Positions 26,157-53,804 of a stretch of 64,000 nucleotides of DNA are shown here, piece after piece. This stretch comes from Escherichia coli (GTDB taxonomy: Bacteria > Pseudomonadota > Gammaproteobacteria > Enterobacterales > Enterobacteriaceae). Position 1 is the stretch's first letter; every line of letters starts with the position of its first letter. The DNA lies in assembly GCF_002854065.1 (NCBI RefSeq), contig NZ_CP024147.1. One strand, written 5' to 3'. A program made the translations under genes and the position numbers. Below the pieces are notes generated by a model that made no database searches, was not told where the DNA came from, and saw only the letters and a program-made list of their open reading frames with translations.

Positions 26157-27407
26157 TCAGATGGCGTGGTTTTGCTTCATTGCAGCAATTTCATCGTCGC
26201 TATAACCCAGCTCCCGCAATACCGCAGCGGTATGTTCACCTAATAGTGGCGCAGCTTTAATATCTGGCGTAAAGGCAGAGAATTTCATTGGACAACCAAC
26301 TGTCAGATATTTTCCACGCAACGGTTGTTCCACTTCGACAACACTGCCACTTTGGCGTAAAGAGGGATCAAGTGAAATTTCTTTCATACTTAAAACCGGT
26401 GCACAAGGAATATCAAACTGAGTCAAATAAGCCACTGCTTCATGTTTATCAATAGTGACAGTGTATTTTTCGATTTCAGCAAAAATATCGAAAATATGTG
26501 GCTGTCGGGCATGGGCTGTACTGTATGCCGGATCGGTAATCCATTCTGGTTTGCCGATGGCTTTACAGGTGTTTTCCCAGTTTTGCTCCTGAATAGTGAA
26601 ATAAATATAGGCGTTAGGATCTGTTTCCCAGCCTTTACATTTCAGGATCCATCCAGGCTGACCGCCACCACCCGCATTACCTCCGCGGGGAACTGCATCA
26701 CCAAATGTACCATTCGGATACTGCGGGTATTCTTCCAGATAACCCAATTTATCGAGACGCTGCTGGTCGCGTAATTTCACGCGGCAAAGGTTCAATACGG
26801 CATCCTGCATTGACATGGTGACTCGTTGCCCACGCCCCGTTTTTTCGCGATGCAGCAAAGCAGCAAGTAAACCGATCAGCAAATGCATTCCGGTGTTGCT
26901 GTCTCCTAACGCTGCAGCGCTTACCAGCGGCGGACCGTCCCAAAAACCCGTAGTGGATGCCGCGCCACCCGCTGCCTGAGCAACGTTTTCATAGGCTTTT
27001 ACATTCACATAAGGCGAACACTCATCAAACCCTTTGATCGAACCAAAAATCAGACGTGGATTGATTTCTTGAATATGCTCCCAGGTGAAACCCATGTGAT
27101 CAATGGCCCCTGGATGAAAGTTCTCGACTAAGATATCAGCTTCGCGGATCAGCTTTTCCATTACCTCTTTGCCTTCCGCTGTTTTGGTATTTAACTCAAT
27201 AGAACGTTTGTTACTGTTAAGCATGGTGAAGTAAAGCGCATCGATATCAGGAATATCTCGCAGCTGGTGACGCGTTACGTCACCAACGCCGGGGCGTTCA
27301 ATTTTAATGACGTCAGCGCCAAACCAGGCCAGCATTTGAGTACAAGATGGGCCAGATTGCACACCGGTGAAATCGAGAACTTTAATTCCTTGAAGTGGAG
27401 TTGACAT
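26157..27407 (-). CDS. frc: Formyl-CoA:oxalate CoA-transferase
   Basis: 416 aa family III CoA-transferase ([40 protein letters not shown]...). Confidence 0.9.
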
Positions 27408-27919
27408 AGCAATACCTATTAGTTAATTAAATATGTGTTAATTTAGCGTTTATTTAAGGCATAACGCCCTCTATAAATAATCCGCAAAATATCGTCGTAG
27501 CGGCACTCGATATTTTTAAATTCCCGTATCAAGTGCTGAAAATCATTTCATCGCCACTTCCAATTCCTTTCCGCATGGTAAGTAGTGAGGACGAAAAGAA
27601 GAATATGATAAATATTGGCTCGCGGTAATCAGAGAGAGCCGCGACATTTGTGATGTTATTCTTACAACTGTAAGAAGCGCCGGTGATTTACAAGCAAGGG
27701 TATGATTACGCTTTTTAAAGCGTACCATAAAACATAACATAATAAATGATTTGTGATGACACGGGATTATTGCGGTTTACTTTGAGGAATATAAAATGCG
27801 AGTTTATAGAACCGCGAGCGCCAAATAATTTTATGACCACAACCTGTCGTATTGTGGTCATAAAAAATTGTCGGCTGGAGGGAGTTAAATCCTTTACCTC
27901 AATATACTGCCTGTCAGCA

Positions 27920-45618: not shown

Positions 45619-46866
<1,248 letters not shown>

Positions 46867-46868
46867 CT

Positions 46869-46890
46869 AAAACATAGCCTTTGCTATGTT
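46869..46890 (-). promoter_or_regulatory. Candidate MntR operator palindrome in the mntH promoter
   Basis: AAACATAGC-CTTT-GCTATGTTT, a perfect 9-bp inverted repeat immediately upstream of the mntH start. Confidence 0.5.
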
Positions 46891-46906
46891 TCATGCTATT
46901 CCAAAC

Positions 46907-46928
46907 GAGAATGATTATCAAATTCATT
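46907..46928 (-). promoter_or_regulatory. Candidate Fur box in the mntH promoter
   Basis: GAGAATGATTATCAAATTCATT resembles the Fur consensus GATAATGATAATCATTATC. Confidence 0.35.
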
Positions 46929-47192
46929 TAAATGGGTTGTGGTGATTTCTCTGATAGACCAGGATTATGACTACGAAAAGATTGATGACTTGAATGTTAT
47001 GGTTATGTTTAATGTTAGCACATTTACATAACTTTCAGCTTCCATACACAACATAGCAGAAATGTATGACAGCTCACTATTTTTGAAGCTTGTCACAGGA
47101 CGTCATTATAGTGTGTGTCAGATCTCGTTTTCCTTAACCATGTTACATAGAATGTGCACGGAAATTTAACCTGCCTCATATTTGGAGCAAAT

Positions 47193-48395
47193 ATGGACCG
47201 CGTCCTTCATTTTGTACTGGCACTTGCCGTTGTTGCGATTCTCGCACTGCTGGTAAGCAGCGACCGCAAAAAAATTCGTATCCGTTATGTTATTCAACTG
47301 CTTGTTATCGAAGTGTTACTGGCGTGGTTCTTCCTGAACTCCGACGTTGGTTTAGGCTTCGTGAAAGGCTTCTCCGAAATGTTCGAAAAACTGCTCGGAT
47401 TTGCCAACGAAGGGACTAACTTCGTCTTTGGTAGCATGAATGATCAAGGCCTGGCATTCTTCTTCCTGAAAGTGCTGTGCCCAATCGTCTTTATCTCTGC
47501 ACTGATCGGTATTCTCCAGCACATTCGCGTGTTGCCGGTGATTATCCGCGCAATTGGTTTCCTGCTCTCCAAAGTCAACGGCATGGGCAAACTGGAATCC
47601 TTTAACGCCGTCAGCTCCCTGATTCTGGGTCAGTCTGAAAACTTTATTGCCTATAAAGATATCCTCGGCAAAATCTCCCGTAATCGTATGTACACCATGG
47701 CTGCCACGGCAATGTCCACCGTGTCGATGTCCATCGTTGGTGCATACATGACCATGCTGGAACCAAAATACGTCGTTGCAGCGCTGGTACTGAACATGTT
47801 CAGCACCTTTATCGTGCTGTCGCTGATCAACCCTTACCGTGTTGATGCCAGTGAAGAAAACATTCAGATGTCCAACCTGCACGAAGGTCAGAGCTTCTTC
47901 GAAATGCTGGGTGAATACATTCTGGCAGGTTTCAAAGTTGCCATTATCGTTGCCGCGATGCTGATCGGCTTTATCGCCCTGATCGCCGCGCTGAACGCAC
48001 TGTTTGCCACCGTGACTGGCTGGTTTGGCTACAGCATCTCCTTCCAGGGCATCCTGGGCTACATCTTCTATCCGATTGCATGGGTGATGGGTGTTCCTTC
48101 CAGTGAAGCACTGCAAGTGGGCAGTATCATGGCGACCAAACTGGTTTCCAACGAGTTCGTTGCGATGATGGATCTGCAGAAAATTGCCTCTACACTCTCT
48201 CCGCGTGCTGAAGGCATCATCTCTGTGTTCCTGGTTTCCTTCGCTAACTTCTCTTCAATCGGAATTATTGCAGGTGCAGTTAAGGGCCTGAATGAAGAGC
48301 AAGGTAACGTGGTTTCTCGCTTCGGTCTGAAACTGGTTTACGGCTCTACCCTGGTGAGTGTGCTGTCTGCGTCAATCGCAGCACTGGTGCTGTAA
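47193..48395 (+). CDS. nupC: Concentrative nucleoside:H+ symporter
   Basis: 400 aa from ATG at 47193 ([37 protein letters not shown]...). The ORF-track start at 47154 is an extension. Confidence 0.9.
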
Positions 48396-48404
48396 GACCA
48401 TACA

Positions 48405-48438
48405 TAAAAAAGCCGGGGATAATTCCCCGGCTTTTTTA
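48405..48438 (+). terminator. Bidirectional rho-independent terminator between nupC and yfeA
   Basis: AAAAAAGCCGGGGA-TAATT-CCCCGGCTTTTTT, a perfect GC-rich hairpin flanked by an A-run and a T-run. Confidence 0.8.
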
Positions 48439-48444
48439 CGCCTG

Positions 48445-50634
48445 TTAATCAGCTAATGGCTGCGGGCGACCAATCAAATACCCTTGCAGATATTGCACCC
48501 CGAGCTTATGCAATAGCGCCTGCTGCTGTTGCGTCTCAACAAACTCCGCAACCACACTCAATGACTTCGCTTTCGCCAGATCGGTAATTGATCTCACAAT
48601 CATCGCATCCAGCGTATTCGTGACGATATCTTTCACAAAGACGCCATCAATTTTGATGATATCAGCCTGCAAACGCTTTAACCGTTCGTAGTTGGCATAT
48701 CCGGTGCCAAAGTCATCAATCGCAATCCGGAAACCAAACTTATGCAGCTGCTCGATGTTGTACATGCTGCTTTCTGCGTTCGAAAACGCCTGCTCCTCGG
48801 TGATCTCAAGAATGACCGCCTGCGGGGAGATGTGATAACGCTTAAATAGACGAATAATCCGCCCGGCAATATTCTTTTGCAGCAGCGTGAGCGGCATTAA
48901 ATTAACTGAAAAGCGCGGGCCTTTTTTGTCGCAAGGGTGTGTTGCCAGCCACTTCAACAAGGATTCCAGCACTTGCAAATCAAAACGCGCGCTAAGGTTA
49001 AACTGAGCAATAAGGGGCAGAAACTTATCCGGGGTCATAATGCCGCCGTCATATTTCAGTCGCGCGAGGATCTCATCATAACCTTCACCCTCTTTGTTGC
49101 GAATTGGCTGGGCGTAGAGCAGCAAATCCCCCTGATCTAACGCCGTGCGAATGGTATTCAGCAATAGCACTTGTTTAGTGGTCTGCCCGGAAACCATCTC
49201 CTCTCGGCTATCCAGCGCCAGCACATGATGATGTGCGCAGGATTGCTCCGCCAGCCAGCTTAACTGCCCCAACAAGGGTTGCAGGGTTTCCTGATTTCCA
49301 TCAAAACGCCCCCAGGCAGCACCATAGCCCATATCCAGCCCGGTATTGTTCCAGTGAATTTGCCGACTATTCAGGATGTTAACCATATGCTGGAGTCGCC
49401 CTTCCGTTTCCGGCCCGCTCAGCACTAACAGCAGTTCACTACCCGGCAATTGATATAACTTTTCGTTTTCCTGCATCAACGGCAGCAGCGTACGGTAGAT
49501 TGAGCGGATACAGTGAACGCGCATCATTAAGCCGTAATGACGACTCATAAACTCAAGATTATCAATGCGCAGGCAGCAAAAACTCTTGCCCGCCTCTTGC
49601 TCCGGCGCTTGTTCCAACGCACGAAAATTGGGTAGGAGCGTTAACGGATCGGTCAGCGCCTGCAAATGCCAGCGGCGATTAAGCCATTCACTGCGATGAT
49701 AAATGCGCACCATATAGAGCAGGCAAACGCTAAAGGAAATCAGCACCGCGAGAATAAATGCCAGCGAATATTCGGTTTCCACCCCTTGCAAAAAGTTCTG
49801 GTTGTAATTCAGCAGGCAAAGCGTTGAAACAGCCCAAGTGAGATTTAAAAACGGATAGCGAAGCTTACCGACCCCGAGGGTAAAGATGATGAAGAAAACG
49901 GGTACCAGGTAACCGGCAATAAAGTCGTTTTCATAAGGTGTGCACAACAGAAGTAGCAGCACGCTTAACGCTGCCAGCCAGCTTAAGGTAAATGCGCGTT
50001 TCTCTTTGCCCAACGACGGAGCGATATCCCTGCGCCACAATATCTGCGCAAAGTGGGGACTTACAATCATGCGAGTGAGATAGTAGAAAAGCATGTTGTA
50101 AATCAGAACAGCGGTGAAAAGGCTTAGCAAATCAACGACCGTGAAAATGGCATCCGCATCGCCGAAAAAGGTGGATATCTTTAGCGGGAAATCAAAGAAG
50201 CTCCCCACAAGATACATGCTGCATTTGATGCCGATCGGCGTCACCAAACCAAGCCAGAACAGACGTTGCCAGACATATCGGCTGGTCAATCCATAACGCC
50301 AACGCGTCCCCAGCTGCCAGCGTAATATTGCGCAGGCACACAACACGACAAACGTCTGGCTGCCGAGCATGACCGCAGTCTGTAAAAAAGAGAGATGAAA
50401 GTTCCACAGATTGGTGCAAAACATCCCGCATAAAACGGGAACGACACCGCGCCAGCCAAAGATAAACAAGATTGACAGCATTACGCACAGTGGCATCCAC
50501 GCCAGAAAGATATAACTGGAATGGATAATGGCAAGTGGCGAAATAAAACGGGATAGCTGAATAAGTACCACGGTGAGCGTAAACGCTAGTGTGAATATCT
50601 TGATATTTTTTATCAGGTTATGCTCCACAAACAT
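48445..50634 (-). CDS. yfeA: Membrane-anchored GGDEF/EAL-domain protein (c-di-GMP phosphodiesterase-like)
   Basis: 729 aa from ATG at 50634 (MFVEHNLIKN...) with an N-terminal MASE-type membrane domain and C-terminal EAL motifs (..EITE.., ..DDFGTGYANY..). Confidence 0.85.
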   Translation of the reverse strand: MFVEHNLIKNIKIFTLAFTLTVVLIQLSRFISPLAIIHSSYIFLAWMPLCVMLSILFIFGWRGVVPVLCGMFCTNLWNFHLSFLQTAVMLGSQTFVVLCACAILRWQLGTRWRYGLTSRYVWQRLFWLGLVTPIGIKCSMYLVGSFFDFPLKISTFFGDADAIFTVVDLLSLFTAVLIYNMLFYYLTRMIVSPHFAQILWRRDIAPSLGKEKRAFTLSWLAALSVLLLLLCTPYENDFIAGYLVPVFFIIFTLGVGKLRYPFLNLTWAVSTLCLLNYNQNFLQGVETEYSLAFILAVLISFSVCLLYMVRIYHRSEWLNRRWHLQALTDPLTLLPNFRALEQAPEQEAGKSFCCLRIDNLEFMSRHYGLMMRVHCIRSIYRTLLPLMQENEKLYQLPGSELLLVLSGPETEGRLQHMVNILNSRQIHWNNTGLDMGYGAAWGRFDGNQETLQPLLGQLSWLAEQSCAHHHVLALDSREEMVSGQTTKQVLLLNTIRTALDQGDLLLYAQPIRNKEGEGYDEILARLKYDGGIMTPDKFLPLIAQFNLSARFDLQVLESLLKWLATHPCDKKGPRFSVNLMPLTLLQKNIAGRIIRLFKRYHISPQAVILEITEEQAFSNAESSMYNIEQLHKFGFRIAIDDFGTGYANYERLKRLQADIIKIDGVFVKDIVTNTLDAMIVRSITDLAKAKSLSVVAEFVETQQQQALLHKLGVQYLQGYLIGRPQPLAD

Positions 50635-50841
50635 GAGTACACTACTCTCACTGATCGGGGTTTTCAGGCACACAAATAATAAGTTTATTCGCATCGCGAA
50701 GCAAACAGGGGCCAGCCTGTTGCCGATTTTTCATCCAATGATGCTTTCACCAGGCGGCGCTAACCCGGACGTAGACTGTATTACAAAAGCGGCAAAAAGC
50801 AGAGACAAAAAACCCCCGCTTTGCAGCGAGGGTTGGAAATT

Positions 50842-50917
<76 letters not shown>

Positions 50918-50956
50918 ACGATGCGTTTACGTACCAAATTTGCTGGGTGCAAAATT

Positions 50957-51032
<76 letters not shown>

Positions 51033-51252
51033 GTCACGTAAAGCTTGTCGAGTTGACGGGCGGCATCATATGAATTCCGCCCGAATGTGTCAACGGCAAA
51101 TTGCAGCGTGTAGTTTCAATCGCTGAAAAATCAGGCAAATGAACAATTTTGGAAAACCGCTCGCATTCAGTAGTTATTCATGTCACGGTTTCCTGTAAAG
51201 TGGTGTTATAAAATGAACTACTAATAGACCCACATACATTCAGGGAATTGTT

Positions 51253-51612
51253 ATGTTCAAGGAGAGGATGACGCCAGATGAACTTGCCAGACTGACCGGC
51301 TATAGCCGCCAGACCATTAATAAATGGGTACGCAAGGAAGGCTGGACGACGTCACCAAAACCAGGCGTCCAGGGTGGCAAAGCCCGACTGGTTCACGTCA
51401 ATGAACAGGTTCGTGAATATATTCGTAATGCTGAACGTCCAGAAGGTCAGGGAGAAGCGCCTGCCCTTTCTGGTGATGCGCCGCTTGAAGTATTGCTGGT
51501 GACACTGGTGAAAGAGATGACGCCAGTTGAACAAAAACAGTTTACATCCTTGCTTCTGCGGGAAGGGATTATCGGATTGTTACAACGCTTAGGGATTCGC
51601 GATAGCAAATAA
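51253..51612 (+). CDS. yfeC: Small putative DNA-binding protein (YfeC family)
   Basis: 119 aa ORF with HTH-like N-terminus (..ELARLTGYSRQTINKWVRKEGW..). Paralogous to the adjacent yfeD. True start may be a few codons downstream. Confidence 0.75.
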   Translation: MFKERMTPDELARLTGYSRQTINKWVRKEGWTTSPKPGVQGGKARLVHVNEQVREYIRNAERPEGQGEAPALSGDAPLEVLLVTLVKEMTPVEQKQFTSLLLREGIIGLLQRLGIRDSK

Positions 51613-51613
51613 T

Positions 51614-52006
51614 ATGAAAAGATTACGCAATAAAATGACCACCGAAGAACTGGCTGAATGCCTCGGTGTGGCTAAACAAACTGTTAACCGTTGGATCAGA
51701 GAAAAAGGCTGGAAAACGGAAAAATTTCCCGGCGTGAAAGGCGGTCGTGCCAGACTTATTCTGGTCGATACGCAAGTTTGCGAGTTTATTCAGAACACGC
51801 CAGCCTTCCATAACACACCGATGCTTCTGGAAGCCGAAGAACCCCTTGCCGAATACGCACCGGGGATTCGCACTCCTGCTTATCGGCAAATCATAAGCGC
51901 AATAGACAACATGACTCACAGTGAGCAGGAAAAAGTTGCGCAATTTTTGTCACGCGAAGGAATTCGTAATTTCCTTGCTCGTCTCGACATAGATGAATCA
52001 GCTTGA
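51614..52006 (+). CDS. yfeD: Small putative DNA-binding protein (YfeD family)
   Basis: 130 aa (..ELAECLGVAKQTVNRWIREKGW..), paralog of yfeC. Confidence 0.75.
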   Translation: MKRLRNKMTTEELAECLGVAKQTVNRWIREKGWKTEKFPGVKGGRARLILVDTQVCEFIQNTPAFHNTPMLLEAEEPLAEYAPGIRTPAYRQIISAIDNMTHSEQEKVAQFLSREGIRNFLARLDIDESA

Positions 52007-52045: not shown

Positions 52046-53254
52046 TCAGGCTGTCGCCTGAATCATTTCGGTGGGTTCCTGCTTCAACGAGTGGCCTGAC
52101 TGCACCATCTCTCCACAGGCAAGAACGGCGTGCCCCGCCGCTAAAATGTTACGAGCGCCGTTTACATCGGCGTTCGCTGTATATCCACATACCTGGCATC
52201 TGAATTTACTTTGTGACAGGCGATTTTCTTTCGCTGTATGACCACAGCACGCGCAACGCTGGCTTGTGTACGCTGGCGGAACAGCAAGCACCTGACCGCC
52301 TCGCCAGAGCTGCTTGTACTCAAGCTGGCGGCGCATTTCATACCAGCCCTGATCCAGTATCGAACGGTTTAAACCTGATTTTGCCCGGACATTGCGCCCC
52401 GGCTGGCTGACCGTACCCGCTGCTGACTTTGACATGTTGCTGACCTTCAAATCCTCAATGACTATCATTGCGTGGTTTTTGCTGACGGTCGTTGTGACTT
52501 TGTGAAGGTAGTCTCTGCGGATATTTGCGGTACAGGAATGCAGTCGCTGTATTTTGCGTTTCTGCTTCTGCCAGTTATTGCTGAATTTGACCTTGCGGCT
52601 TAACTGTCGCTGAAGTCTCGCCAGCTTCTTCTGGTTTTTCTGAAAACTGTTTACAGGCTCAAAGACTGTGCCATCTGACAGCGTGGCGAGTTTAGCCACG
52701 CCAGCATCCAGTCCGACCATTGATGCTGAAGGGTGAACCGGAGTTGATACTTCACTTTCTGTCTGAATACTGATGTACCACTTACCGCAGGACTGGCTGA
52801 CAGTGACATTTTTCACAACACCCGTGACCTGACGGCTGTTCCGGTAGCGCATCCAGCCAAGTTTCGGCAGAAAAATACGGCTGTTTTCCTGATCGAGCTT
52901 AACGCCCTGCGGGTAGCGGAATGCATCATTCTGTCCCCGCTTTTTGAATCGGGGAAAAGCAGCCCGCTTCCGGAAGAAGTTTTTGTAAGCCCGCTCAAGG
53001 TCTTTCAGTGACTGTTGCAATGGCTGTGAGGGCGAATCTTTAAGCCATTGCGTTTCAGTGGCATTTTTCCACTCAACCAGCCAGGAAGCCATTTTCCCGT
53101 AAGGGATGTATTTATTACCGGCCTCATGATTCTCATTCTGACGTGCCAGAGCACGATTGAAAACGAAACGACATGCGCCTGCGAAGCGCCTCATTTCACG
53201 CTCCTGTTGACCAGCGGGTCTTAACTGGAATTTAAATGCCTGTAGTCGTTTCAC
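52046..53254 (-). CDS. tnpB: TnpB (OrfB) RuvC-like nuclease of IS200/IS605 family, putative RNA-guided
   Basis: 402 aa with RuvC-I (..[10 protein letters not shown]..), RuvC-II (..[10 protein letters not shown]..), a zinc finger (CACCGH...CQVCGY) and RuvC-III (..[10 protein letters not shown]..). Confidence 0.85.
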
Positions 53255-53261
53255 AGGCCAA

Positions 53262-53804
53262 ATGATACTTTGGTCTATGAATAAAGAAACCGATATCCGA
53301 CGGGGAAGGCATTGTGTTTTCCTGATGCATGTTCATCTGGTCTTTGTCACCAGATACCGACGTCAGATTTTTGACTATGACGCGACAGAAAAACTACGCA
53401 CTTACTTTTCAAATGTATGTGCTGATTTTGAAGCTGAACTGGTTGAAATGGATGGCGAACCAGATCACGTCCATTTGTTAATTAACTATCCTCCCAAACT
53501 GGCGATATCCAGTCTGGTAAACAGCCTCAAAGGCGTATCGGGTAGGTTACTGCGACGAGATCGACCAGATATTGCAGTCAGGTATTACTACAAAGGCGTT
53601 TTGTGGAGTCCTGGCTATTTTGCCAGTAGCTGCGGAGGTGCGCCAATATCCGTCATCCGCCAATACATTGAACAACAGCAAACACCTGGTCAGGTGGAAA
53701 ACCGCGCCTTATATCCCCGCCCTGAAGGACGGGGTTTTACGGCGCACCGGATAAATAAAAAACGGCAGGGGTATCTCTCCTGCCGTTTATCTTTTATGCG
53801 CTAA
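53262..53804 (+). CDS. tnpA: TnpA (Y1 HUH transposase) of IS200/IS605 family, with C-terminal tail reading into flanking DNA
   Basis: IS200-like core (..HCVFLMHVHLVFVTRYRRQIF.., HUH motif DHVHLLINY, Tyr region ..RQYIEQQ..). Likely start is MNKE at 53277. The ORF continues to 53804, across the presumed gltX terminator. Confidence 0.75.
   Translation: MILWSMNKETDIRRGRHCVFLMHVHLVFVTRYRRQIFDYDATEKLRTYFSNVCADFEAELVEMDGEPDHVHLLINYPPKLAISSLVNSLKGVSGRLLRRDRPDIAVRYYYKGVLWSPGYFASSCGGAPISVIRQYIEQQQTPGQVENRALYPRPEGRGFTAHRINKKRQGYLSCRLSFMR
53755..53787 (-). terminator. Candidate gltX rho-independent terminator
   Basis: On the minus strand a hairpin (ACGGCAGG ... CCTGCCGT) is followed by a U-run (A-run 53755..53762 on plus), immediately after the gltX stop. 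Confidence 0.5.

Follow-up and report, generated by a model that had tools for sequence, protein, structure and literature searches.

An unoccupied IS186 target in the predicted terminator hairpin between nupC and pdeA of an Escherichia coli strain

The closest described counterpart of the locus analyzed here is found in E. coli K-12 MG1655, where the NC_000913.3 record has 'insertion sequence:IS186C' (2514273..2515617), which contains insL3 (b2394), between nupC (b2393) and pdeA (b2395). The target preference of this element is also documented, because Lee et al. (2016) mapped 59 new IS186 insertions to the target 5'-GGGG(N6/N7)CCCC-3', a sequence that occurs at only 54 sites in MG1655 (PMC5009759). 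A literature search combining IS186 with nupC returned nothing, and searches on yfeA, pdeA and insL3 yielded only a passing mention, insL3-pdeA being named among convergent overlaps. Here we compare this interval with the corresponding one in a 64,000-nucleotide stretch of E. coli DNA (the window). An initial sequence-only reading of the window had placed an IS186 copy between nupC and yfeA (the old name of pdeA) in K-12 MG1655, and the annotation of NC_000913.3 shows this to be correct.

The convergent locus and its spacer hairpin

The features of the locus are as follows.

47193..48395, + strand: nupC, an open reading frame with ATG at 47193 and TAA at 48393..48395 (400 aa plus stop), annotated nupC in strain CUWW06 and in K-12; the product is a nucleoside:H+ symporter of the concentrative nucleoside transporter family.
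48396..48444, no strand: convergent intergenic spacer of 49 bp, read from the sequence.
48405..48438, no strand: perfect hairpin AAAAAAGCCGGGGA-TAAT-TCCCCGGCTTTTTT, a predicted bidirectional intrinsic terminator on the basis of folding and the A6/T6 flanks.
48415..48428, no strand: IS186 target motif GGGG(N6)CCCC, here GGGGATAATTCCCC, unoccupied (pattern match with exact N6).
48417..48426, no strand: GGATAATTCC, the 10 bp duplicated around IS186 when the site is occupied (K-12, H2 and 100416 junctions).
48445..50634, - strand: pdeA (yfeA), stop codon at 48445..48447, 729 aa as annotated; the product is a c-di-GMP phosphodiesterase with the domain order MASE1, degenerate GGDEF, EAL.

Both gene assignments agree with the Pfam profiles. 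In NupC the Nucleos_tra2_N, Gate and Nucleos_tra2_C domains all scored above their cut-offs, with E-values down to 2e-62, and in PdeA the MASE1 (3e-67, 227 bits) and EAL (2e-59, 201 bits) domains enclosed a GGDEF domain that reached 20.4 bits against a cut-off of 23.8 and is therefore regarded as degenerate. The gene ends facing the spacer and its length of 49 bp were as first read, and only the end coordinate calls for a remark. The position 50694 initially given corresponds to the most upstream in-frame ATG of the pdeA frame (749 aa), whereas the start codon annotated by RefSeq is at 50634 (729 aa) for the near-identical CUWW06 as well as for K-12 MG1655. An Rfam scan of 46000..52000 returned nothing except two tRNA-Ala genes.

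The spacer is largely filled by a hairpin with a perfect stem of 15 bp and a loop of 4 nt, which lies 9 nt from the stop codon of nupC and 6 nt from that of pdeA. A simple terminator scan missed it on the - strand and, on the + strand, picked a short, sub-optimal register, and for this reason the hairpin was evaluated by folding. As RNA, the two strands folded with -25.0 kcal/mol (+) and -30.8 kcal/mol (-), at z-scores of about -7.5 on both strands, and none of 200 shuffled sequences was equally stable. On the + strand an A6 run precedes the stem and a T6 run follows it, so that each strand would present the hairpin followed by a U-run. The two hallmarks of an intrinsic terminator, i.e. a stable GC-rich stem-loop and a U-run 3' of the stem, were thus found on both strands, and the bidirectional terminator proposed at first sight is a fair description of the anatomy. 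Most likely, therefore, this hairpin acts as a shared bidirectional terminator of nupC and pdeA transcription.

The stem core of the hairpin reads GGGG-ATAATT-CCCC and matches the published IS186 target, suggesting that the terminator stem itself is a preferred target of the IS186 transposase. Two matches to the motif were found in the 64-kb window against 0.57 expected, an excess that is not significant on its own. The second match, GGGGGATATGGCCCC at 1669..1683, fits both the N6 and the N7 readings; it falls within an autotransporter gene, and no IS186 copy occupies it either.

Comparison with K-12 MG1655

The IS186C copy of K-12 is 1339 bp long, has terminal inverted repeats of 23 bp and is flanked by a 10-bp target duplication, GGATAATTCC; counting the terminal C/G as target sequence rather than as part of the IS extends the duplication to 12 bp, GGGATAATTCCC. 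The junctions read ...GCCGG GGATAATTCC / CATAAGCGCTAACTTAAGGGTTG ... CAACCCTTAAGTTAGCGCTTATG / GGATAATTCC CCGGT..., and the duplication corresponds to the loop and the inner stem of the spacer hairpin. When the 1339-bp IS and one copy of the duplication were removed, K-12 was colinear with the window from 47193 over 3509 bp without gaps, including the spacer at 48396..48444 whose alignment to the K-12 interval had been proposed as a check, and the two sequences differed at 36 positions (1.03%). Because the K-12 element lies inside the same hairpin and is bordered by the GGATAATTCC duplication, the window represents the empty-site configuration, as had been claimed. In agreement with this assignment, the 10-mer GGATAATTCC is present in the window as a single copy with no IS186 footprint at the site, and no IS186 23-bp terminal repeat was found anywhere in the 64 kb even when up to 3 mismatches were allowed. 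What is expected of an empty IS186 target was all observed: the motif, occupancy with a duplication in other genomes, and neither IS nor footprint in the window.

The consequences of the insertion for the hairpin were analyzed by folding the K-12 junctions, which gave only -10.4 and -8.9 kcal/mol with z-scores of about 0. These values suggest that both nupC and pdeA have lost their intrinsic terminator in K-12. The listing of insL3-pdeA among the convergent transcriptional overlaps of an MG1655 RNA-seq survey (PMC12288877) is consistent with such a loss, although as evidence it is weak, since reads from the IS map to several of its copies.

The absence of the IS had also been taken as further evidence that the strain is not K-12. 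The conclusion is right, but it follows from the sequence divergence; the missing IS is itself weak evidence, since 82% of the complete E. coli genomes lack it. Neither an IS186C between nupC and pdeA nor near-identity to MG1655 was found in the window, and the 36 mismatches in 3509 bp exclude K-12. We accordingly dismiss the idea that the window derives from a K-12 strain that lost IS186C: it has the shared gene order in its favor and nothing more, and it conflicts not only with this divergence but also with the presence between yfeD and gltX of an IS200/IS605-type element that MG1655 lacks, and with the ranking of its matches, in which a wastewater isolate comes first and O157:H7-like genomes (99.1%) come next. 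The empty nupC-pdeA site can serve as a strain marker, telling that IS186C is missing and that the locus is not MG1655-like. The yfeD-gltX interval presents the reverse of the nupC-pdeA situation, with an IS here and none in K-12. The element spans 52046..53687 and consists of insQ/TnpB (52046..53254, - strand) and a truncated tnpA (53277..53687, + strand), and the corresponding spacer of MG1655 has only 51 bp and no IS.

The wastewater isolate is E. coli CUWW06 (Thailand; NZ_CP182139.1), which differs from the window by 1 SNP in 16 kb; the next best genomes, O157:H7 included, reach 99.1%. CUWW06 carries IS1B copies at L006 9210..9977 and 27032..27798 that are absent from the window at about 10754..10762 and 27799..27807, and the window therefore comes from a very close relative rather than from CUWW06 itself. 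A search of the CUWW06 chromosome with a 500-bp internal segment of IS186 gave no match. Upstream of dsdC, at approximately 5460..9400 of the window (mapped from L006 3893..7817), transposase genes or fragments of IS2, IS30 and a partial IS911 adjoin a JAB/DUF987/YeeU-antitoxin module, and this cluster looks like an island remnant.

Occupancy of the site across E. coli

The distribution of the two configurations was determined in 5426 complete E. coli genomes, where a site was called empty when a 651-bp query spanning the spacer was matched over 80% or more of its length. By this measure the site is empty in 4459 genomes (82%, about four in five), among them O157:H7, O26, O111 and O104:H4 strains. 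An orientation-blind query detected an IS terminal repeat directly next to the pdeA flank in 956 of the 5426. The nupC-IS186 junction in the K-12 orientation accounted for 472 genomes, and a practically equal number (465, including E. coli C, ATCC 8739 and H2) carried the element at the same position and with the same duplication but in the opposite orientation. IS186 was detected anywhere in the genome in 2214 cases, and the nupC-pdeA site is thus filled in about 43% of the IS186-bearing complete genomes. The GGATAATTCC duplication was found at the occupied junctions of K-12, H2, 100416 and 14EC047.

The 3' arm of the stem differs between the window, which has C (CCCCGGC), and K-12, which has T (CCCCGGT), and the window's variant was found in seven occupied genomes. 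A causal or linked relation between the K-12 change and the insertion was rejected, given that T is present at many empty sites and C at these seven occupied ones; the K-12 T is a lineage polymorphism. One of the seven genomes is that of 100416, an isolate from human stool in Gambia. Compared with the window, one of its flanks is identical over 1234 positions and the other has 1 mismatch in 2200, and its IS186 has the same duplication but the orientation opposite to that of K-12. Since these flanks match the window, the copy represents an independent insertion on the window's own haplotype, and 100416 shows that the window's site is a live IS186 target. Taken together, the occupied genomes indicate that the nupC-pdeA site has been hit in at least three separate insertion events.

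The two orientations found on the K-12-type haplotype might instead have arisen by inversion of the IS in place. K-12 and H2 are identical in the IS and its immediate flanks despite the opposite orientation of the element, which agrees with an inversion, and the junctions themselves fit either origin. Independent insertion is favored over inversion, since the lon hot spot offers a documented precedent and 100416 provides a case on another haplotype.

Several further observations concern this locus. MG1655 and H2 show 43 differences in mntH plus the first two-thirds of nupC but none from the 3' end of nupC onward, across the IS186 copies, which have opposite orientations, and over 1.6 kb of pdeA; this suggests a recombination boundary inside nupC. 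At the occupied site of 14EC047 (L009, about 660..2035) the two copies of the duplication are one base apart (GGATCATTCC versus GGATAATTCC), and the IS, of 1336 bp, has a frameshifted transposase, reflecting either a decaying copy or a sequencing error. In EC42405 (L004 597..724) the spacer has 128 bp and contains the terminator hairpin twice, the second time in degenerate form, on either side of the REP-like palindrome GCCTGATAAGCGTAGCGCATCAGGC; it is a different rearrangement of the same site. Finally, in ST2747 (L005, about 3990..4010) a deletion has removed nupC together with the spacer and the 3' end of pdeA, and the nupC leader is fused directly to an internal part of pdeA.

An empty site could also be the product of a precise excision of IS186 that restored the hairpin. 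A restored site would read the same as one that was never occupied, and close relatives such as 100416 do carry the element. Nevertheless, the empty state is that of the majority (82%) and is spread across distant lineages, the chromosome of the nearest genome, CUWW06, is devoid of any IS186, the hairpin is perfectly symmetric with no footprint, and among 857 IS events recorded in mutation-accumulation lines a single one was an excision (PMC5009759). A previous occupancy of the site is thus very improbable. Still less credible is a collapse of an IS186 copy during assembly. Although IS copies are classic places of assembly error, here the junction is seamless with one copy of the duplicated 10-mer, the same form is present in 4459 independently finished genomes, and the surrounding 16 kb match a complete genome with one SNP.

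We consider it very probable that IS186 has never occupied the nupC-pdeA spacer of the window, a polymorphic site for this element, and that the spacer retains an intact, predicted shared convergent terminator. Since the CUWW06 chromosome has no IS186 match and the window has no terminal repeat, the simplest reading is that IS186 is absent from the window's own genome, its lineage having presumably never carried the element and the site never having been hit. According to this explanation, nupC and pdeA would converge on one stem-loop with a U-run for each strand that ends both transcripts, and the IS186 transposase would target the stem core GGGG-ATAATT-CCCC. Where IS186 is active, it would insert into the loop and inner stem, duplicating GGATAATTCC, and would part the two arms by 1.3 kb so that the hairpin is lost for both genes, as in K-12. 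The strain analyzed here would have kept its terminator intact, probably because its lineage is without IS186.

Significance and comparison with known systems

At this annotated IS site of K-12, the empty state is the common, and presumably the ancestral, allele. All of its components were already known, and the target preference behind it has been described in the literature. The finding is correct but ordinary, and it illustrates in textbook fashion how an IS186 target can lie within a predicted terminator hairpin. Two aspects are mildly useful. The site is recurrently hit in nature, in both orientations and in 956 of 5426 complete genomes. The predicted nupC/pdeA terminator, intact in most wild strains, is disrupted in K-12, the strain that serves as reference for most E. 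coli transcriptomics. A more far-reaching proposal, which we regard as unlikely, is that the nupC-pdeA terminator is a main natural landing site of IS186 whose occupancy is selected through a changed expression of nupC or pdeA (c-di-GMP) or through read-through from nupC into the transposase; if that were true, the window would represent the wild-type control allele.

Compared with the IS186C site of K-12, the window shares the locus, the flanking genes and the target bases, and the K-12 flanks rejoin into its spacer; the difference is that the window contains no IS. The nupC-pdeA site also resembles the published IS186 targets in its G4-N6-C4 sequence, in the repeated independent hits at one base and in the use of both orientations. 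In contrast to those targets, however, it lies in the predicted terminator hairpin of two convergent genes and not in a promoter, and the evidence for it comes from natural genomes and not from laboratory selection. Finally, it is like the bidirectional intrinsic terminators of convergent E. coli genes in consisting of a single GC-rich hairpin between an A-run and a T-run, and it differs from the terminators that have been measured in being known from its sequence anatomy and folding.
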